A DNA stretch of 46,977 nucleotides from an uncultured Dehalococcoidales bacterium (GTDB lineage Bacteria > Chloroflexota > Dehalococcoidia > Dehalococcoidales > BS750m-G39). Location of the stretch: contig CAYWCO010000001.1 of NCBI GenBank assembly GCA_964456815.1, positions 1 through 46,977 of the forward strand, given 5' to 3'. This document shows positions 1-31,207 of the stretch, piece after piece. The stretch's first letter is position 1, and each line of letters begins with the position of its first letter. The notes beneath the pieces are model-generated. The model saw nothing but the letters and a program-made list of their open reading frames with translations. It was not told the origin of the DNA and made no database searches. The translations under genes were made by a program, and so were the position numbers.

Positions 1-580
1 TCGGGATGCCCATCCAGTCAGAGAATTCCAGAATCTTCTCAGGCTCATTTTCCATAACCTTATCATAATAGCCTATCGCATCTAGCATAATTGCTCCGCC
101 AGTGTGCTTGGGGAAATTCTCATTGGCCAGACCCTTATCCCAGCCCTGATATACATAATGGCGGTATTTCATCCACCCCGGGGTAAGCCAATAGACATCC
201 TTACCCTCGCTTATTCTCTCCCTCTCCTCCTCGCTGGCCAGCATGTCAATACAGTGAGAGGCTTTTATTCTGGAAATCCTGATTCCAGGTTCCTCTTGTT
301 CCTGAATTATGGTGTCTATCTTTCGATATGGATTATCGGCATTAACGTAGCAGAACTTACCGCCGTAGACCACGATGACGTTAGAAGCGTAGGTCTTGGC
401 TGTACCTAGCTGTTTAATAAGCTGGCTTTCAAGTTTCCGGGGCACTTCATGGCGGCCGGGCTTGGTATAAAGAATTTTCTTGGCATCCAGAAAGCCACTG
501 TTTCTAAGATAGTTCAGTTCCATACTGAGCGTGCCGCAGGCAACAATGGCATAGTCCTGAAACGAGACACGTTTCTCCAT
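1..580 (-). CDS. DUF1638-like protein (3'-partial; C-terminus lies beyond the window start)
   Basis: Absent from the ORF track because it runs off the edge. ATG at 580-578 follows AAAAGGGGGAAAGC. Hand translation gives 193 stop-free codons: MEKRVSFQDYAIVACGTLSMEL...VVYGGKFC...SHCIDML...YWLTPGW. This resembles the DUF1638 pattern. Confidence 0.55.
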   Translation of the reverse strand, partial: MEKRVSFQDYAIVACGTLSMELNYLRNSGFLDAKKILYTKPGRHEVPRKLESQLIKQLGTAKTYASNVIVVYGGKFCYVNADNPYRKIDTIIQEQEEPGIRISRIKASHCIDMLASEEERERISEGKDVYWLTPGWMKYRHYVYQGWDKGLANENFPKHTGGAIMLDAIGYYDKVMENEPEKILEFSDWMGIP

Positions 581-666: not shown

Positions 667-1203
667 TTACCTGGGCAGCTGCACTAATACCTGGGACAGC
701 TGCTCGTTGGCCTTTTTCAACTCTTGTGCTGCTTGTAATGCGCTATTATAAATTGGATTGCCCTCCAAGTTATTGGATTTCTCCACCCATTTGTTGAATT
801 TCTCGGCATGCTTTTTGTTATGCTCGACCCACGAGGTCAAAAGCACTTTAAGTCTCCCAGTTTCATCAGTCGGGAACCTCTTTAGGATATCCTCAACCAT
901 TGTTCGGATAGTATTCTCAGGCACCGCCCCGAGGATTTCGTCTACCTTTTCACCATCACCAAAGAACATCTGCATGGGTATACTCATAATCTGATATTTC
1001 ACCGCTGTGCGCTGGTTCTCATCCACATTCAGCTTGCAGAACTTGAACCTGCCATCATACTCCTCTGAGAGCTTGTCGTATATAGGTGAAACCATCATAC
1101 AGGGGCCACACCAGGGCGCCCAGAAATCGACCTCTGTGGGAAGGTCTGAGTTCAGGACTTCCTCTTCAAAATTTTGATCCGTAATTTCTGTTACTTTGCT
1201 CAT
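667..1203 (-). CDS. trxA: Thioredoxin, long form (canonical WCGPC domain plus a ~70-aa helical C-terminal extension)
   Basis: FWAPWCGPC active site and a thioredoxin fold over the first ~108 aa. The extra tail reads TDETGRLKVLLTSWVEHNKKHAEKF... Confidence 0.88.
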   Translation of the reverse strand: MSKVTEITDQNFEEEVLNSDLPTEVDFWAPWCGPCMMVSPIYDKLSEEYDGRFKFCKLNVDENQRTAVKYQIMSIPMQMFFGDGEKVDEILGAVPENTIRTMVEDILKRFPTDETGRLKVLLTSWVEHNKKHAEKFNKWVEKSNNLEGNPIYNSALQAAQELKKANEQLSQVLVQLPR

Positions 1204-1253: not shown

Positions 1254-2174
1254 TCACCCTTGCTCTTGAACATATTTAAAGGCGGACATAGCAGCAGTGA
1301 CACCGTCTCCGACCGCAGCGGCGATCTGGCGAGGTGAGCTCCTACGGATGTCGCCAGCGGCGAAAATTCCAGAAGCTGAGGTCGCCATCGTTTCATCAGT
1401 GACGATATAACCGGCATCGTCCAGCTCAAGAATGTTGAAAAAGCCCCGGCTGTTGGGCATGAGCCCTACAGCAACGAAGACTCCGTTAACTTTCAAGTTA
1501 GACTGCTGGCCTGTTTTCACATGGCGTAGTTTAAGCTCCTCCAGTACTTTATCCCCCGAAACCTCTTCCACCACCGTGTCCCAGATGAACTCCAGCTTGG
1601 GATGGGCAAATGCCCGCTCTTGGAGAGCCCTTCCTGCCCGGAGCTGGTCTCGCCGATGTATTACGTAGACTTTACTGGCATGCTGACTTAGCTCCAGAGC
1701 ATCAGTAATAGCGGTATCACCCCCTCCTACTACCGCTACCTCACGGTTGCGGAAGAAGAAGCCATCACAAGTAGCGCAGTAGGAAACACCGCGACCAGAC
1801 AGCCTTTCCTCGCCCGCAACTTCCAGCTTACGATACTCTGAACCAGCAGCGATGATTACGGCCGAAGCTTCAAGGTTACCCTCAGTGGTTGAAATACTAT
1901 AATAGGGCTGCTCTTGAGAAATGCCTATGACCTCAGTGGTTGCTACCTCCAGACCGTATCTGACTGCCTGCCGATGCATGAGCGAACCCAGCTCGGAGCC
2001 AGCTATGCCCTCAGGAAAACCAGGGTAATTCTCCACCAGCGCAGCATTGACCATCTGGCCCCCTAACATCCCTCGCTCCAGCAGCAAGCTTCTGAGTCCT
2101 GCCCGTGAGGTGTAAAGACCAGCAGTAAGTCCAGCAGGGCCACCCCCAATAATGATTACGTCATACCTAGCCAT
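1254..2174 (-). CDS. trxB: Thioredoxin-disulfide reductase (low-Mr NTR)
   Basis: GGGPAG FAD motif, CATC redox dithiol (SYCATCDG), GGGDTA and HRRDQLR NADPH motif; 306 aa. Confidence 0.92.
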   Translation of the reverse strand: MARYDVIIIGGGPAGLTAGLYTSRAGLRSLLLERGMLGGQMVNAALVENYPGFPEGIAGSELGSLMHRQAVRYGLEVATTEVIGISQEQPYYSISTTEGNLEASAVIIAAGSEYRKLEVAGEERLSGRGVSYCATCDGFFFRNREVAVVGGGDTAITDALELSQHASKVYVIHRRDQLRAGRALQERAFAHPKLEFIWDTVVEEVSGDKVLEELKLRHVKTGQQSNLKVNGVFVAVGLMPNSRGFFNILELDDAGYIVTDETMATSASGIFAAGDIRRSSPRQIAAAVGDGVTAAMSAFKYVQEQG

Positions 2175-2200: not shown

Positions 2201-2449
2201 TTACTTGATGTCTTCCAGAGGCCTCTTGAATGGATCAATGGCACTGGGTATTTTGGCAGGTGCCTCAAATTGCCCATCGGGTTTCACCCCAGAAGTGCCA
2301 GGGTTACTAACCCCGGTTGCTTCCCCTGGCTTCTCGATATGCCCCCGATATTTCTTACTGAAACACAAGTAGTAGTGTCTGCCGCGGTAAAGGGCACATT
2401 CCCTGCATAATTTCCCAGTGAAGGGACATATCATCTCTTCCTTAGCCAC
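2201..2449 (-). CDS. Small Cys-rich protein of unknown family (82 aa) with C-terminal tail PSAIDPFKRPLEDIK
   Basis: GTG start 8 nt after GGAGG. N-terminal C-x6-C-x2-C-x12-C (ICPFTGKLCRECALYRGRHYYLC). Sits tightly inside the operon, 15 nt after the methyltransferase and 26 nt before trxB. Confidence 0.6.
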   Translation of the reverse strand: MAKEEMICPFTGKLCRECALYRGRHYYLCFSKKYRGHIEKPGEATGVSNPGTSGVKPDGQFEAPAKIPSAIDPFKRPLEDIK

Positions 2450-2464
2450 GATCTATACCTCCAG

Positions 2465-3178
2465 TCAAGTACTAACTACCCCTCGTTTGCCTGCCACTAT
2501 TATCGTAAATCCAGCATCGGGGAAATAGCCTTCCCTTGGCTCTTCCACGTGCTGCACCTTGCCCGGCTGTTGAAAAAGCGTGGAAACAACCCTTTCCGTA
2601 GAAAAGCCCGCCTGTTCCAGCAACTTCAGTGCCTCATCATATGTGTAGAAGGTAACAAATTTATAAAAACGGTGCCCCTGCGCCTTCTGCGTCTGATAAA
2701 ACTGACCCCAGGGACTTTCCTTTAAGACCAGCCCCAGCACTATCTTGCCGCCGGGTATCAGGGTGCGGTTGGCTTCCTTTAAAACGTCCAGAGGAGAGTC
2801 CAGGAAACACAGGGTAACAATCAAAAAGACCGTACCGAATAATTCTTCATCAAAGAACTCCTGCTCTCCCCTTCCTAGAAAGGCACTTATCCCTCTCTTC
2901 CTTGCCATCTCAACGAGCTTGATTGAAGGGTCAATACCAGTCTCTATTCCCAGAGCTTGGGCAAAGCGGCCGCTACCGACACCTATCTCAAGCCATGCCT
3001 TTGGCAGGGACGGCGGGAGTGACTTAAACGCCTGTGCCTCAATTAAGAAGATAAGGCTTCCCTCTCTATCAAACCAGGCATCATATTCTGTAGCCAGGTC
3101 ATCGAAGGGAGACCGCTCAGCGTTCTTCTGCCGTCTCCCCGTATTTGATTTTCGAGTCCTGGAATTGGTTGGCGGCAT
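2465..3178 (-). CDS. Class I SAM-dependent methyltransferase
   Basis: LEIGVGSGRF motif I and a Methyltransf_11-like layout. I prefer the ATG at 3178 (AAGGAGGAAAT upstream) over the track start at 3220, which would overlap cooT. Confidence 0.8.
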   Translation of the reverse strand: MPPTNSRTRKSNTGRRQKNAERSPFDDLATEYDAWFDREGSLIFLIEAQAFKSLPPSLPKAWLEIGVGSGRFAQALGIETGIDPSIKLVEMARKRGISAFLGRGEQEFFDEELFGTVFLIVTLCFLDSPLDVLKEANRTLIPGGKIVLGLVLKESPWGQFYQTQKAQGHRFYKFVTFYTYDEALKLLEQAGFSTERVVSTLFQQPGKVQHVEEPREGYFPDAGFTIIVAGKRGVVST

Positions 3179-3191
3179 ATTTCCTCCTTGG

Positions 3192-3395
3192 TCAAGCTTT
3201 GTCAGCTTTGACACTCTCATTGAGCAGTATCTTCGAGGTCGAGAAATCTATTTCGACCACTCTGCCCGATATAACCCTTTCCTCGCCAAACAGTGTCTCC
3301 AGTTCCACCCGGTCTTCATGCAGTCGCATATGAGCGATGTCCTGAGCAAGCGGCTTTTTGCCCCACTTATTTAGATAAGCCTTAGCAAGACACAT
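3192..3395 (-). CDS. cooT: CooT-family nickel-binding protein
   Basis: 67 aa starting MC-AK with Cys2. The pattern MCxAKxxL...TLFxEE...G...ID...I.L.E matches my recollection of Rhodospirillum CooT. It lies directly downstream of cooC. Confidence 0.7.
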   Translation of the reverse strand: MCLAKAYLNKWGKKPLAQDIAHMRLHEDRVELETLFGEERVISGRVVEIDFSTSKILLNESVKADKA

Positions 3396-3428
3396 ATTCG
3401 CACCTCCTCTTGAGCGGCTAGGCCCACG

Positions 3429-4208
3429 TTATCCCGGTGCTGGCAGACCTGCCTTTGCAAGGATGCGGTCCAAGGCATTCTTGATCTCCCGCACCGCTAC
3501 CCCCTTCACCGGGGTTCTACCGTCTAGACTTGAACTGAAAATATCGGCGTCAAAGTATATACACCCGACCACCCCAATGTGCCGCTCCTGTAATTCCATT
3601 TTCAGTCTGGTGGCTATCTCTTCTGATGGCACCTTATTCAGGATAGCCCAGACATTCTTGATGCCAATTCCTGAAGCCAAGTCGTGTATCTTCTGACCTA
3701 CATTTACTGATTCCAGAGGAGGCTCTACCACAATCAGTACACTGTCAATGCTCGTCTCAACGCCCCGGCCGAAATGCTCTACCCCCGCTTCCATATCCAC
3801 GATAGCCAGCTCGCCTTTCGCCAAAGCGAGCTTCTTTAAGAACTCGCGACTTAATACCCCCATGGGGCAGGCACAGCCTTCCAGGGACTGGAGTATCTTG
3901 CCGATGCCGACCAGCGTAAGACCATCTTTCTGAACCAAATGCTGAGGTGGTAAATCCTCCAACGCGATGCGGCTTTCGGCAAGAACGCTTGGCTGCCCCA
4001 TCTTTCGCTGCAGACTCTTCTTGCCACCGACAAGCTCCATGAGAGGCACAGGCGGGTAGTCAAAGCCCAGCATGCTGAAAAGTCCCGAATTGGACTCATC
4101 CGAGTCCACCACCAGCACACGGTAACCCCTGAGTCGTGCTTCGTTTGCCAGCAGGGCAACTACAGTACTTTTGCCACTTCCCCCCTTACCGCAGACCGAT
4201 ATCTTCAT
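3429..4208 (-). CDS. cooC: CooC-type P-loop NTPase (Ni-insertion accessory protein family)
   Basis: Deviant Walker A CGKGGSGKST, a CxC metal motif (EGCACPMG) and a MinD/ParA-like fold length of 259 aa. Confidence 0.82.
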   Translation of the reverse strand: MKISVCGKGGSGKSTVVALLANEARLRGYRVLVVDSDESNSGLFSMLGFDYPPVPLMELVGGKKSLQRKMGQPSVLAESRIALEDLPPQHLVQKDGLTLVGIGKILQSLEGCACPMGVLSREFLKKLALAKGELAIVDMEAGVEHFGRGVETSIDSVLIVVEPPLESVNVGQKIHDLASGIGIKNVWAILNKVPSEEIATRLKMELQERHIGVVGCIYFDADIFSSSLDGRTPVKGVAVREIKNALDRILAKAGLPAPG

Positions 4209-4228
4209 CGTTTGTCACCCTTCCCTGT

Positions 4229-4441
4229 TTACATTCTTACTATCTCGATTGCCTTCAGAGGGCAGGCACGGACGCAGTCTCCACAACCCTGGCAGACAGA
4301 CGGGTCTGTCATTGGTATATCGTAGGGTGTCTCCTGCTTGAGCAGCTTGTGAGAACACGCCAGGGCAGCAGCACAAATGCCGCTGTCACACTTTTCTGGA
4401 TGGCATTTCTTATAATCTACTAATGCCATCTTGCTTGGCAT
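4229..4441 (-). CDS. Small 2x[4Fe-4S] ferredoxin with an RLI-like first cluster motif
   Basis: KKCHPEKCDSGICAAALAC plus canonical CQGCGDCVRACP. The start shares 1 nt with the stop of the upstream thioredoxin-like gene (TGATG). Confidence 0.8.
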   Translation of the reverse strand: MPSKMALVDYKKCHPEKCDSGICAAALACSHKLLKQETPYDIPMTDPSVCQGCGDCVRACPLKAIEIVRM

Positions 4442-4935
4442 CAGCCTTTCTTTTCAGCCTCCCTTGCCTTCTCTAGCTCCTCCTCTAGCTCCTCCAGCTC
4501 CTGCACCATCGACGGGTGTACTGAGTGAGCTGGCCATCGAGCCTTGAGGTCAGCGATTTTGTCCTCAGTCTCTTTTATCCTATCTGTGCCCGGCTCTTTA
4601 GCTATTACATGCCCCAGCAAGCGCCTCAATGACTTATGGTCCTGAAAACCGAGCAGTTTCCTTACCGGCTGAGAGTCTTTAAAAAGTAATATGGTTGGCA
4701 CAACCATGATGCGATACCGGGCTGACGTATCGGGACTTCCCTCTATATCCACCCTCACAAACTTCACGTTGCCTTCATATTCTTTTACCAATTCATCGGC
4801 AAAAAGACATGTAGGATAACATGTGTGGCACCATCGCGCAGTGAAGCACGTGAACACTGGGAGTTCACATTCCAGCACTTCTTTGTCGAAATTTCGGTCG
4901 GTAATGTCTATCATCTCTGCAGTCGGCTGGGTCAC
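4441..4935 (-). CDS. Thioredoxin-like protein, atypical WCHTC site plus a ~60-aa acidic coiled C-terminal extension
   Basis: FTARWCHTCYPTC and a thioredoxin fold. The tail reads DLKARWPAHSVHPSMVQELEELEEELEKAREAEKKG. It overlaps the Fur gene stop by 4 nt. Confidence 0.8.
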   Translation of the reverse strand: MTQPTAEMIDITDRNFDKEVLECELPVFTCFTARWCHTCYPTCLFADELVKEYEGNVKFVRVDIEGSPDTSARYRIMVVPTILLFKDSQPVRKLLGFQDHKSLRRLLGHVIAKEPGTDRIKETEDKIADLKARWPAHSVHPSMVQELEELEEELEKAREAEKKG

Positions 4936-5363
4936 TGCGTCTTCCCCTGCTCCTCACACTCCGGACAGTAACCCTCAAGGTATAACTCGGCTTTAGTCAC
5001 CCTGAAGCCATGCTCTCGCCTTACTGCCTTGATCAACTTCTGGAAGTAGGGGTTCTGAAATTCGATGACTTTGCCGCATCCCTGGCAGACTAGGTGCTGA
5101 TGCTCAGGCGATTGCTTTATCTCGTAGTAGCAACGAACCTTGCCCAGCCTCATCTCATCAACCAGCCCCAGTTCCTTGAAGAGGTTAAGTGTGCGGTATA
5201 CCGTCGCTGGACTTATAGACTCATCCCGGGCACTAGCACGATGGTACAGCTCTTTAGCGTCAATATGCCCTTCAGCATCGCGCAATAGCTCTAGAAGTAG
5301 GCACCGCTGAGCTGTCATTGAATGACCGTGAATTTCTCTGTCTTTTTTGAGATTGAGACTCAT
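4932..5363 (-). CDS. Fur-family metalloregulator (Fur/PerR/Nur type not resolvable)
   Basis: Winged-helix N-domain (ATVYRTLNLF), HQHLVCQGCG and CPEC structural-Zn CxxC pairs. ATG at 5363 is preferred over the track's TTG at 5369. Confidence 0.85.
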   Translation of the reverse strand: MSLNLKKDREIHGHSMTAQRCLLLELLRDAEGHIDAKELYHRASARDESISPATVYRTLNLFKELGLVDEMRLGKVRCYYEIKQSPEHQHLVCQGCGKVIEFQNPYFQKLIKAVRREHGFRVTKAELYLEGYCPECEEQGKTQ

Positions 5364-5370
5364 TATCAAT
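5352..5370 (-). promoter_or_regulatory. Candidate Fur-family operator (9-1-9 imperfect palindrome) overlapping the Fur start codon
   Basis: Minus strand reads ATTGATAATGAGTCTCAAT. 7 of 9 arm positions are self-complementary, and it contains the GATAATGA half of the classical Fur box. Confidence 0.4.
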
Positions 5371-5376
5371 TTGCAT

Positions 5377-5404
5377 TTTATACGACTTCGACCTCTTTTG
5401 TCAA
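5377..5404 (-). promoter_or_regulatory. Sigma-70-like promoter of the Fur-led operon
   Basis: Minus strand reads TTGACA (5404-5399), 16 nt, TATAAA (5382-5377). The predicted TSS is only a few nt before the ATG at 5363. Confidence 0.5.
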
Positions 5405-29245: not shown

Positions 29246-29339
29246 GCTCGGGGCCGGCTATACCCTCAGGAAAGCCGGGGTAATTCTCCACCAGCGCAGC
29301 ATTGACCATCTGACCCCCTAACATCCCTTGCTCCAGCAG
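29246..29339 (-). pseudogene. Relic of a trxB paralogue (codons 31-61 only)
   Basis: 94 nt align without gaps to 1991..2084 with 7 mismatches, all transitions. It encodes LLEQGMLGGQMVNAALVENYPGFPEGIAGPE, bounded by in-frame stops on both sides. Confidence 0.8.
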
Positions 29340-29405
29340 TATTCATGCATGCAGTCTCTACGCCCTTTGCCTTCTTCTTTTCTTGAGCGAATAATTGCTA
29401 CCTAT

Positions 29406-30890
29406 TTACTTGTTTCCCAATACATATTTGGCTGCGTTTTCTCCAGCGATATAACCGGAACAAAGGGCAAAGCACAATGCTGCACCGGCAGATCTAAAAC
29501 TGTAATCTATGAATTCCCAACCGCTAGCGTTATCACCGACGGCATAAAGTCCGCTAATCAAGCTATCCTGCTTATTAATAACCTCCATACGGTGATTAAT
29601 CTTAATGCCGCCTACTGTAGTATCACAGCCCTGGCGACCTAGAACGGCATAGTAAGGCGGTGTACGTAGTGGCAGGAGATACCTTTCCTCTTTGAGAAAA
29701 TCTGCATCATAGCCCTTATCGCAGAAGGAGCTGTATTGCTCTACCGTGGCCCTTAGGGCTTCAGGTTTAGCTCCCATCCACTCAGCAATCTCTTCCCATG
29801 AATCAGCTACTTTAGCTGTTCCCTCGGCTGCGTCTGATTGGAAATCATTTTCCAATTCGTCCATCCAGGCTCCATTATTTCCCTTCTGTCCTTCAATGCC
29901 GCTGAGGACCTCTCTTTTTTGGATCATATCCCGTTTTACCTTCGAATCTATCAGAGCGTAACAAATTTTACCCGGCTGCCTGCTCAGGCAATTACTAGCC
30001 ATGTCCATATGATGAAGACCAAGGGATTCATCAACATAACGTTCTCCATTTTTATTCACCAAAATCACTTCAGGTCGCCGAACGAGTATGTCTAAGCTAC
30101 CGGCCCCTTGATAATGCTGAGGGCCGATTAACAAAATTGCTAACTGGTCGCCGATAACGGCTCCCGCTTCTGCGGCCATTAGTATGCCATCCCCCGTCAT
30201 TTGAGGTAGCGAATTGCAAAATATATCTCCATGTGAGGGGAAATACTTATTTATCATTTCTTTGTTTTCCCCGAATCCCCCGGTAGCAATGATAACGCTT
30301 TTAGCGGTGATTTTGAGTTCCTTATCCTTCGTTGTTGCCAGAACCCCATTCACTTCCCCTTTTTCATCGATGAGAATCTTCCTTGCCGCAGTTTCACAAA
30401 GCAACTGCACACCCCGGTCCTGGCAGCCCTTGATCAACGTTTCGGCAAGTCCATGCCCAACAGCTCCTGAAGCTCCTGCACCTAACATATGAAAAACCTT
30501 GGGGCCTTCTCCCTCAACTACGAATTCTAAAATAGAGTTAAACTTCAGCCCCTCTTCTTCCAGCCATCGAATGATATCTCCTGATTTGTTGATAATGACG
30601 CGAACGAGCCTGGGGTCAACCCTCCAATTAGCGCTTTCCATTTTCTCCTTAAAAACCTCATCCCCTGAAATCTTGATGCCCAGCCGCTTCTGAGCTGGAC
30701 TTTCGACAGCGAAAATACCATGCGAAATACCTGCATTTCCACCCAGGCTGGGAGCCTTTTCTAGCACGATAATGTTCTTCGCCCCGGCTTCTGCTGCCGC
30801 TATTGCTGCGGTCAGGCCAGCTCCCCCTCCACCAATGACCAGAATGTCAGCCTGTAGATTTTCCGCATTTGAATTTCTGGTAGTACTCAT
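29406..30890 (-). CDS. Soluble FAD-dependent oxidoreductase, fumarate-reductase/urocanate-reductase-like flavoprotein family
   Basis: ILVIGGGGAGLTAAIAAAEAG dinucleotide fold, an FAD_binding_2-like length (494 aa), and RBS GGGAGG. No signal peptide, haem or FMN domain seen. Confidence 0.8.
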   Translation of the reverse strand: MSTTRNSNAENLQADILVIGGGGAGLTAAIAAAEAGAKNIIVLEKAPSLGGNAGISHGIFAVESPAQKRLGIKISGDEVFKEKMESANWRVDPRLVRVIINKSGDIIRWLEEEGLKFNSILEFVVEGEGPKVFHMLGAGASGAVGHGLAETLIKGCQDRGVQLLCETAARKILIDEKGEVNGVLATTKDKELKITAKSVIIATGGFGENKEMINKYFPSHGDIFCNSLPQMTGDGILMAAEAGAVIGDQLAILLIGPQHYQGAGSLDILVRRPEVILVNKNGERYVDESLGLHHMDMASNCLSRQPGKICYALIDSKVKRDMIQKREVLSGIEGQKGNNGAWMDELENDFQSDAAEGTAKVADSWEEIAEWMGAKPEALRATVEQYSSFCDKGYDADFLKEERYLLPLRTPPYYAVLGRQGCDTTVGGIKINHRMEVINKQDSLISGLYAVGDNASGWEFIDYSFRSAGAALCFALCSGYIAGENAAKYVLGNK

Positions 30891-31004
30891 AATAACCTCC
30901 CTAATTATGTTTTACTTTCGTTGAGGATATTCCTCTAACGCAACTACCACAATTGCTGCCCTGAGATTTATTTCTTACCCTGTTTGTCCAACCAGAGCAA
31001 TCTA

Positions 31005-31076
31005 CTACTTGATATCTTCCAGGGGCCTCTTAAACGTATCAATGGCGCTAGGATACGGTAATGTTTCACCTTTCAT
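31005..31076 (-). CDS. 23-codon mini-ORF or relic carrying the PSAID(P/T)FKRPLEDIK tail
   Basis: MKGETLPYPSAIDTFKRPLEDIK*. The last 48 nt match 2201..2248 with 8 differences, 6 of them at third codon positions. The RBS is weak. Confidence 0.35.
   Translation of the reverse strand: MKGETLPYPSAIDTFKRPLEDIK

Positions 31077-31131: not shown

Positions 31132-31207
<76 letters not shown>

Follow-up and report, generated by a model that had tools for sequence, protein, structure and literature searches.

An undescribed family of small Cys3-His proteins carried in redox-enzyme operons of uncultured Dehalococcoidales

The stretch of DNA analyzed here, referred to below as the window, comprises 46,977 nucleotides (nt) of contig CAYWCO010000001.1 (assembly GCA_964456815.1) from an uncultured Dehalococcoidales bacterium. 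At positions 2201..2449 of its minus strand it encodes an 82-residue, cysteine-rich protein, which is located between a methyltransferase gene and trxB, the gene of a thioredoxin-disulfide reductase. This small protein belongs to a new, lineage-restricted family of Cys3-His small proteins. It is composed of an N-terminal head that is strongly conserved and contains four invariant residues, a variable linker and a short conserved tail; the head is combined with different C-terminal parts in other members, and the genes of the family recur in a number of redox-enzyme contexts. We tentatively favor the reading that the protein is a small cytoplasmic metal-knuckle accessory or adaptor of redox enzymes, of a family that has so far gone undescribed.

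The small gene, which spans 2201..2449 with its stop codon included, is real, far beyond a chance open reading frame. Its start codon is GTG (2449..2447), and a Shine-Dalgarno sequence, GGAGG (2458..2462, minus strand), can be read in front of it with a spacer of 8 nt. The N-terminal MAK is conserved in the family (A2 in 96% and K3 in 97% of the members), which confirms the GTG start. The stop codon of the methyltransferase gene (2465) lies 15 nt before the small gene and the start of trxB (2174) lies 26 nt after it. A first-pass annotation, made from the letters of the window, had described a good ribosome-binding site and tight packing between the two flanking genes, in agreement with these values, and the 82-residue sequence it quoted is the exact translation of the minus-strand frame. 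The search of 5.8 billion proteins identified 226 homologues at E values of 0.01 or lower. The best 120 of the 226 have E values of 5e-22 or lower and are nearly all 82–84 residues in length; among the matches listed none carries a functional name, and the few taxon-labelled ones are from Chloroflexota. For one of the 120 listed homologues (P0090) the source gives the label YHS/TRASH; neither the window protein nor any of 141 diverse members matches a YHS/TRASH profile in Pfam. The ratio of nonsynonymous to synonymous substitution rates (dN/dS), calculated against five orthologues and one paralogue, is 0.20–0.42.

The 82-residue protein has no match in Pfam or NCBIfam, even at an E value of 1, and the profile search of all PDB sequences with its family gave no match either. 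The earlier statement that the protein could not be assigned to any family is thus supported: a match to a well-characterised family, the finding named in advance as one that would overturn the proposal, was looked for in these three resources and did not appear. When 141 diverse members were scanned against Pfam, one Response_reg match and three isolated weak matches were all that was returned, and the literature searched contains no description of the family. When 1.84 billion cluster representatives were searched exhaustively with the profile, only 161 clusters matched at E values of 0.001 or lower; the family is therefore small. Its distribution is narrow. The head family is present in 20 of 24 genomes sampled from the taxonomic family to which the window belongs, which are 1.0–1.8 megabases (Mb) in size and carry 1–3 copies each, in two of 16 genomes from other families of the same order, and in three of 301 genomes sampled evenly over the phylum, the window's genome counted. 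The sampled complete genomes of the order contain no copy of the small protein.

The head (residues 1–37; 2339..2449, minus strand) follows the consensus MAKxxMxCPFSGxxCxECxxYRGRHYYLCFxxxYRG, with a mean top-residue frequency of 0.90. In the MAFFT alignment of the 141 diverse members, C8, C15, C18 and H25 are the sole invariant columns. Counted on sequences anchored on the three cysteines, H25 is present in 145 of 145, R24 in 139, G23 in 136 and C29 in 113 (78%). Because the invariant positions are three cysteines and one histidine, a Cys3-His ligand set is likely rather than a four-Cys knuckle, and C29 is probably a lineage-specific extra. The family signature is C-x6-C-x2-C-x6-H with an RGRH core, and the window protein has every element of it. 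The first-pass annotation had proposed a four-Cys metal knuckle with the spacing C-x6-C-x2-C-x12-C. The N-terminus does look like a metal knuckle; however, the invariant set includes a histidine, and the last cysteine spacing is x10 (C8-x6-C15-x2-C18-x10-C29). We infer that the head binds a metal at the putative Cys3-His(+Cys) site formed by C8, C15, C18, H25 and possibly C29, all within 2339..2449; zinc would be the most likely one.

The arrangement of the putative ligands differs from those of the established metal-binding families with which it was compared. The two CxxCG-type knuckles of rubredoxins (PF00301) are not found in the window protein, which has a single CxxC and no Pfam match at an E value of 1, and the fourth cysteine, C29, is kept in only 78% of the members. 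The order C-x2-C-x6-H is the reverse of the H-x3-C-x2-C of RsrA-type anti-sigma (ZAS) proteins, and Pfam zf-HC2 gives no match. The CDGSH iron-sulfur (Fe-S) domain, C-x-C-x2-(S/T)-x3-P-x-C-D-G-(S/A/T)-H, has only the 3Cys-1His ligand type in common with the small protein; the spacing here is C-x6-C-x2-C-x6-H, and there is no match to Pfam zf-CDGSH. WhiB-like proteins, which are actinobacterial, have the pattern C-x(14-22)-C-x2-C-x5-C followed by G[VI]WGG, whereas the spacings here are x6, x2 and x10, without a GVWGG turn and without a match to Pfam Whib. The tail has no cysteine, different from the two cysteines in the C-terminal arm of DsrC, and there is no Pfam DsrC match. The window protein ends in ...LEDIK and has no folded C-terminal domain of the ThiS/MoaD/CysO type. 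No ThiF/MoeB-type E1 gene is found near 2201..2449, and tblastn detects none in the assembly, which is 88.6% complete and consists of 135 contigs.

The head is connected to the tail through a variable linker rich in Gly, Pro and Ser (residues 38–60; 2270..2338, minus strand), with a mean top-residue frequency of 0.55; in the AlphaFold model the predicted local distance difference test score (pLDDT) of residues 41–62 is below 50. The tail (residues 61–82; 2204..2269, minus strand) has the consensus FExPxKxPSAIDPFKRPLxDIK. The mean top-residue frequency rises to 0.74 over its motif, residues 61–74, in which D72 and P73 are invariant, F74 is present in 98% and A70 in 94% of the sequences. The pattern FExP...DP[FY] is common to the subfamilies of 74 and 88 residues, and this conservation suggests that the tail is a probable short linear docking motif. 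The family architecture is modular. Besides the tail type of the window protein (FExP...PSAIDPFKRPLxDIK), the head occurs with the tail of the 74-residue form, which ends in ...KDPYIxEML, with that of the 88-residue form, which carries VLDPFEFDLFDI, and in a form ending in ...NVEELVERSEG. It is also found fused to a receiver domain, which is C-terminal to the head (Response_reg, E value of 2e-11), and at the N-terminus of a long form of about 152 residues. As it is combined with several different C-terminal parts, the head is a portable module.

The C-terminal domain of the long form, about 100 residues in size, reaches a pLDDT of about 88 in the model. Of 111 long-form members, 108 have Gly-Gly as their last two residues. 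The top PDB matches of this domain in Foldseek are PB1, SUMO and LC3, all of ubiquitin-like beta-grasp fold; the scores are weak (best E value of 4.9e-3, probability 0.99), and Pfam ThiS and MoaD do not match even the long form. Such paralogues, composed of head and beta-grasp domain, are encoded in the sister genomes G001, G002 and G014 (L023:4688-5143, L024:5363-5824 and L025:4830-5288); none was found in the assembly of the window's genome. The long-form gene lies 2–18 nt after a gene of the ThiF family and 7–14 nt before a PALP gene of the cysteine-synthase type, and the surrounding genes encode Rrf2, a cysteine desulfurase, a hexapeptide transferase, XdhC and MOSC proteins. The long paralogue is very likely a CysO/ThiS/MoaD-like sulfur carrier that bears the head.

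In the window, the small gene is an internal member of a long operon on the minus strand, as the placing of the promoter-like sites indicates. The best sigma-70-like site of the region, with 11 of 12 positions, is located at 5404..5375, directly upstream of gene 4932..5369, and no promoter- or terminator-like site is present on the minus strand between 2174 and 3220. The upstream part of the operon (3192..5369) encodes a Fur-family regulator, a thioredoxin-like protein, a small ferredoxin, CooC and CooT, as assigned with Pfam; for the regulator gene (4932..5369), the assignment to the Fur family is based on the syntenic genes of relatives, which match FUR (PF01475). It is followed by the methyltransferase gene (2465..3220; S-adenosylmethionine (SAM)-dependent, Pfam Methyltransf_11/23), the small gene, trxB (1254..2174; TIGR01292, E value of 1e-110, above the curated cut-off) and the gene of a thioredoxin with a C-terminal extension (667..1203; TIGR01068, PF00085), whose equivalents in relatives carry DUF8180. 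The last gene of the operon encodes a DUF1638 protein (2..580). The Fur-led operons of four of the five related contigs likewise end with such a gene, and in some contigs it is adjoined by nitroreductase and methyltransferase genes. The thioredoxin-like protein, 164 residues in length (4441..4935), is a fusion; the counterpart of its last 50 or so residues (DRIKETEDKIADLKARWPAHSVHPSM...) is a separate 50-residue gene product without a Pfam family in L005, L061, L062 and L063.

The same order recurs in six contigs, with small proteins that are 70–83% identical: Fur, thioredoxin, the 50-residue protein, Fer4, CooC, CooT, the methyltransferase, the small gene and genes of thiol redox. The methyltransferase gene is the constant upstream neighbour of the small gene in the orthologue contigs (L028, L005, L061, L062 and L063), with gaps of 15–16 nt. 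The genes directly downstream of the small gene encode TrxB, or thioredoxin-DUF8180, or a series of glutaredoxin, GroES, DUF59 and TrxB. Conservation of the frame in relatives that keep the flanking genes, on which the first-pass annotation had made its proposal depend, is thereby established. Its link between the small gene and trxB holds at the level of the thiol-redox operon, which is found in all six contigs; the immediate neighbour, however, may be thioredoxin-DUF8180 or glutaredoxin.

The gene contexts of the family were compared over 39 loci, taken from 22 related genomes besides the window and the rest of its genome, with the neighbouring genes clustered and labelled with Pfam. The commonest neighbours are the CoxMSL-type molybdenum (Mo) hydroxylase and GlcD-like/CCG flavoenzymes; these, and not thioredoxin reductase, dominate across the family. 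At about 22 loci, a GlcD-like protein (485 residues), a CCG/Fer4_8 protein (431 residues) and a second FAD_binding_4/GlcE-like protein (534 residues) are encoded upstream of the small gene, and CoxG, CoxM, CoxS, CoxL and then a 72-residue C2H2-like protein downstream of it. At these loci the small gene lies 51–106 nt after the flavoprotein gene and −4 to 31 nt before CoxG; because the spacing is wide on the first side and tight on the second, it heads the molybdenum-hydroxylase part. In some 20 relatives the GlcE-like and CoxG genes have the small gene between them, unlike on contig C110 of the window's own genome. In contigs labelled Desulfomonile, a distant small gene is located directly before CoxM, CoxS, CoxL, the 72-residue protein and CoxG, and in two of the three (L073 and L074) it overlaps the CoxM gene by ATGA, while in the remaining one it abuts this gene. 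Between the Desulfomonile-labelled and Dehalococcoidales operons, identity is 71% for CoxL, 70% for CoxS, 57% for CoxM, 60% for CoxG and 47% for the 72-residue protein. The operon is orthologous in both groups; therefore the small gene travels with the Mo-hydroxylase operon across phyla, and this operon is the most general association of the head family. The whole Mo-hydroxylase operon is common to L072-L074 and to L027, L038 and L042, and the comparison suggests that it moved between phyla together with its two small-protein genes. The second of these encodes a protein of 72–77 residues with the motif CPVC...H...H (C2H2-like, weak DUF5810; L050, L042, L072:9931-10164 and L073:7392-7610); it is constantly the last or second-to-last gene of the CoxMSL-type operon in Dehalococcoidales and in the Desulfomonile-labelled contigs.

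The members of the window's clade are placed differently. They follow genes of MinD/Fer4, Nitro_FeMo-Co and NifU_N proteins, sometimes of radical-SAM proteins, and precede either the genes of a GlcD-like protein (457 residues) and a CCG protein or those of an Fe-S (PF04060) protein and Pyr_redox_2. Contig C15 carries the second full copy of the window's genome, which stands before the Fe-S (PF04060) and Pyr_redox_2 genes. Another contig of this genome, C113, ends (2843..2852) right after a radical-SAM gene, where relatives carry another copy; the assembly may have broken there because the gene is repeated. In the tree, the Cox-context clade and the window's clade are separated with support of 99/96 for both. 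The tree has no resolution inside the window's clade and does not give the order of recruitment to the Fur, GlcD and Pyr_redox contexts.

Based on these observations, we tentatively propose the following model for the adaptor. The 37-residue head would fold round a metal held by C8, C15, C18 and H25, with C29 as a lineage-specific extra; the metal would most likely be zinc, and the knuckle would provide a generic function such as docking or sensing. A disordered linker would follow, and the short FExP...DPF motif behind it would dock onto a partner enzyme. The original home of the head family would be the CoxMSL-type molybdenum hydroxylase operon. From there, the head would have multiplied in one uncultured Dehalococcoidales family and been placed into other redox operons, the window copy coming to sit in an operon led by a Fur-family gene, in which a thioredoxin system is combined with genes for the maturation of nickel and Fe-S centres. 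Its probable task there is to link or tune these proteins of redox and maturation, and it may do so according to the redox state of thiols. The first-pass annotation had suggested a redox-sensing adaptor or a client of the thioredoxin system, and the former is still a viable hypothesis. Docking by the tail and the role as adaptor are what we infer from conservation and gene context. Several points weigh against the proposal. An Fe or Fe-S centre would suit the invariant Cys3-His set as well as zinc does. The head is modelled by AlphaFold2 with a pLDDT of only about 55 in the short protein and 60–64 in the long paralogue, and the whole window protein, modelled from 122 homologues, with 48.8. 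The contexts are so varied that no single common partner is evident, and 'adaptor' stays a loose term. Finally, the Mo-hydroxylase operon of the window's own genome (C110, 1840..1921) has a gap of about 80 nt between the GlcE-like and CoxG genes and no small gene, so a Mo-hydroxylase can exist without a dedicated copy.

The preference for flavoenzymes raises the alternative that the protein is a miniature Fe or Fe-S electron carrier, which would pass electrons to or from the flavin adenine dinucleotide (FAD) of the adjoining enzymes (CoxM, GlcD-like, TrxB/Pyr_redox_2), in the manner of the extra Fe-S loop of 4-hydroxybenzoyl-CoA reductase, but acting in trans. The adjoining genes almost always encode flavoproteins (FAD_binding_5 of CoxM, FAD_binding_4 of GlcD-like proteins, TrxB, Pyr_redox_2), translational coupling to the CoxM gene is seen in L073 and L074, genes of NifU_N, MinD/Fer4 and Nitro_FeMo-Co proteins often lie just upstream, and Cys3-His ligation is known for surface-exposed Fe-S clusters. 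However, the head is also joined, in other members, to a receiver and to a ubiquitin fold resembling that of sulfur carriers; such fusions are ill-suited to an electron carrier and argue against a pure one. Moreover, the protein has a single CxxC pair and no similarity to the rubredoxin, ferredoxin, CDGSH or HiPIP models of Pfam. We therefore consider an electron carrier unlikely. The CxxC pair itself could instead serve as a thiol redox switch, or make the protein a client of the thioredoxin system: C15-x2-C18 would alternate between a dithiol and a disulfide form, whether or not zinc is released on the way, thioredoxin or TrxB would reduce the pair, and the cycling would alter the binding of the tail to its target. 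The conserved operon with thioredoxin, TrxB or glutaredoxin under a Fur-family regulator is consistent with this idea, and so are the copies that precede Pyr_redox_2 genes of the disulfide-reductase type and genes of CCG-domain proteins (HdrB/D type); zinc Cys3-His redox switches such as RsrA exist. Nevertheless, the ZAS motif order H-x3-C-x2-C is absent, and four ligand-type residues that never vary, along with the conserved Gly and Arg, indicate a structural metal site in the first place. The largest and most widespread subfamily resides in a Mo-hydroxylase operon without thioredoxin genes, and this dominance argues against a dedicated thioredoxin client. On the present sequences, a switch or client appears improbable.

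Two further explanations were weighed. A small zinc-finger regulator of transcription or RNA, acting on its own operons, would fit a head rich in Arg and Tyr (YRGRHY, YRG), the receiver-domain fusion and the loci at which the gene is the first of a sub-operon. In the window and its orthologues, however, the gene is located mid-operon between enzyme genes with gaps of 15–26 nt, and no similarity to DNA-binding families was found in Pfam or NCBIfam; an output domain would not usually precede its receiver, as the head does, and the sulfur-carrier-like fusion is hard to reconcile with regulation. Such a role is very unlikely. The small size, the richness in cysteine and the radical-SAM gene directly upstream at three loci would agree with the precursor of a ribosomally made, modified peptide (RiPP), in which linkage to a modifying enzyme should be constant and a conserved leader should be followed by a variable core. 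Yet three loci are only a small part of the 39, which show no recurrent genes for other modifying enzymes, proteases or export. In addition, the most conserved part is a segment rich in Cys, His, Arg and Gly, typical of a folded metal site and not of a leader, and paralogues have the head fused to folded domains; a RiPP precursor is extremely improbable. In a bolder version, which we regard as quite improbable, the head would be a new portable metal module, possibly of Fe-S type, that acts as a docking or electron-entry handle for FAD enzymes of anaerobes (CoxM, GlcD and TrxB types) and as the N-terminal handle of new ubiquitin-like sulfur carriers (for sulfuration of the molybdenum cofactor or for cysteine synthesis), and the window protein would be a switch under thioredoxin control, through which the redox state of thiols acts on the maturation or activity of metallo-enzymes.

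The first-pass annotation had also noticed that the tail recurs at a second locus. A tail-like sequence is indeed present at 31005..31064 (minus strand) and encodes ...PYPSAIDTFKRPLEDIK, but it is a decayed 3' fragment of a paralogous small-protein gene and not a functional module. Over about 70 nt the fragment differs from the 3' end of the C15 paralogue at just three positions, and the match extends 9 nt beyond the stop codon; this near-identity past the end of the gene identifies it as a remnant of that paralogue. The fragment lacks the head, has Thr in place of the invariant Pro73, and is enclosed by an open reading frame that runs into a glycine transfer RNA (tRNA-Gly) gene at 31133..31207. 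A second fragment, 94 nt of trxB (29246..29339, minus strand; codons about 31–61), was detected by repeat search and reading and is 93% identical to 1991..2084. Between the two fragments is the gene of a FAD_binding_2 flavoprotein (29406..30890), of which three other genomes from the genus have no orthologue and whose best match elsewhere is 45% identical. The region 29246..31076 is a recombination scar around a recently acquired gene and not a site at which the tail was reused; the tRNA-Gly gene lies directly upstream of it. Two other interpretations of this region were considered. A selected mini-frame of 23 residues (ATG at 31076) was rejected, as it has lost the invariant Pro and has no clear ribosome-binding site, and as its third-position differences from the window gene simply reflect descent from the C15 paralogue, to which the fragment is nearly identical past the stop. 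The idea of an integrated element of about 28 kilobases framed by the tail and trxB repeats is disfavored, since the two repeats stem from different genes and, at the second locus, enclose the flavoprotein gene alone.

The head is a conserved domain without a Pfam or NCBIfam entry or a structure, and proteins of such small size commonly escape annotation or are entered as 'hypothetical'. The streamlined genomes of these uncultured Dehalococcoidales (about 1.2 Mb, within the range given above) keep their one to three copies always inside redox-enzyme operons. The head may thus point to an overlooked factor that helps to mature, regulate or supply with electrons the flavin, molybdenum and Fe-S enzymes of anaerobes. 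Being joined to a probable ubiquitin-like sulfur carrier as well, it could reveal an accessory part of the sulfur-carrier system. With 82 residues and four candidate ligands, the window protein is a compact target.

Several known systems resemble the small protein in part. Like the RsrA-type (ZAS) zinc-thiolate switches, it is small and cytoplasmic and has a Cys3-His set with a CxxC pair; RsrA is genetically linked to trxB and trx, which recalls the operon of the window. Different from them, its ligand order is reversed, there is neither an anti-sigma domain nor a sigma-factor gene nearby, and most family members are not located beside thioredoxin genes. The closest parallel to the long paralogues of the sister genomes is provided by CysO, ThiS and MoaD: these paralogues also combine a beta-grasp fold with a Gly-Gly end, and are encoded between a ThiF-type E1 and PALP, near a cysteine desulfurase. 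The window protein, a head with a short tail, has neither beta-grasp domain nor Gly-Gly end, and we know of no N-terminal Cys3-His head on the classical carriers. HcrB, the FAD subunit of 4-hydroxybenzoyl-CoA reductase in the xanthine-oxidase family, contains an extra, Cys-rich loop of about 40 residues that binds a [4Fe-4S] cluster. By analogy only, the head is likewise a Cys-rich element of about 40 residues tied to an FAD subunit, through the coupling of the small gene to CoxM; it is, however, on a separate polypeptide, with other Cys spacing and a putative His ligand. The archaeal one-domain zinc-finger micro-proteins, for example those of Haloferax volcanii, have fewer than 100 residues and two CxxC (C(P)XCG) knuckles, and their functions are diverse and mostly unknown (PMC6562870). 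The window protein is also shorter than 100 residues and consists essentially of one putative Cys/His metal knuckle, whereas its set is Cys3-His with a single CxxC, it has no sequence similarity to them, and it is tied to redox-enzyme operons. DsrC, a substrate of CCG-domain/HdrD-like reductases, is likewise small and Cys-containing, with a flexible C-terminal arm, and the small protein is also found near CCG-domain genes; in DsrC the redox cysteines are in the C-terminal arm, while here the cysteines are gathered in the N-terminal knuckle and the tail is free of them.

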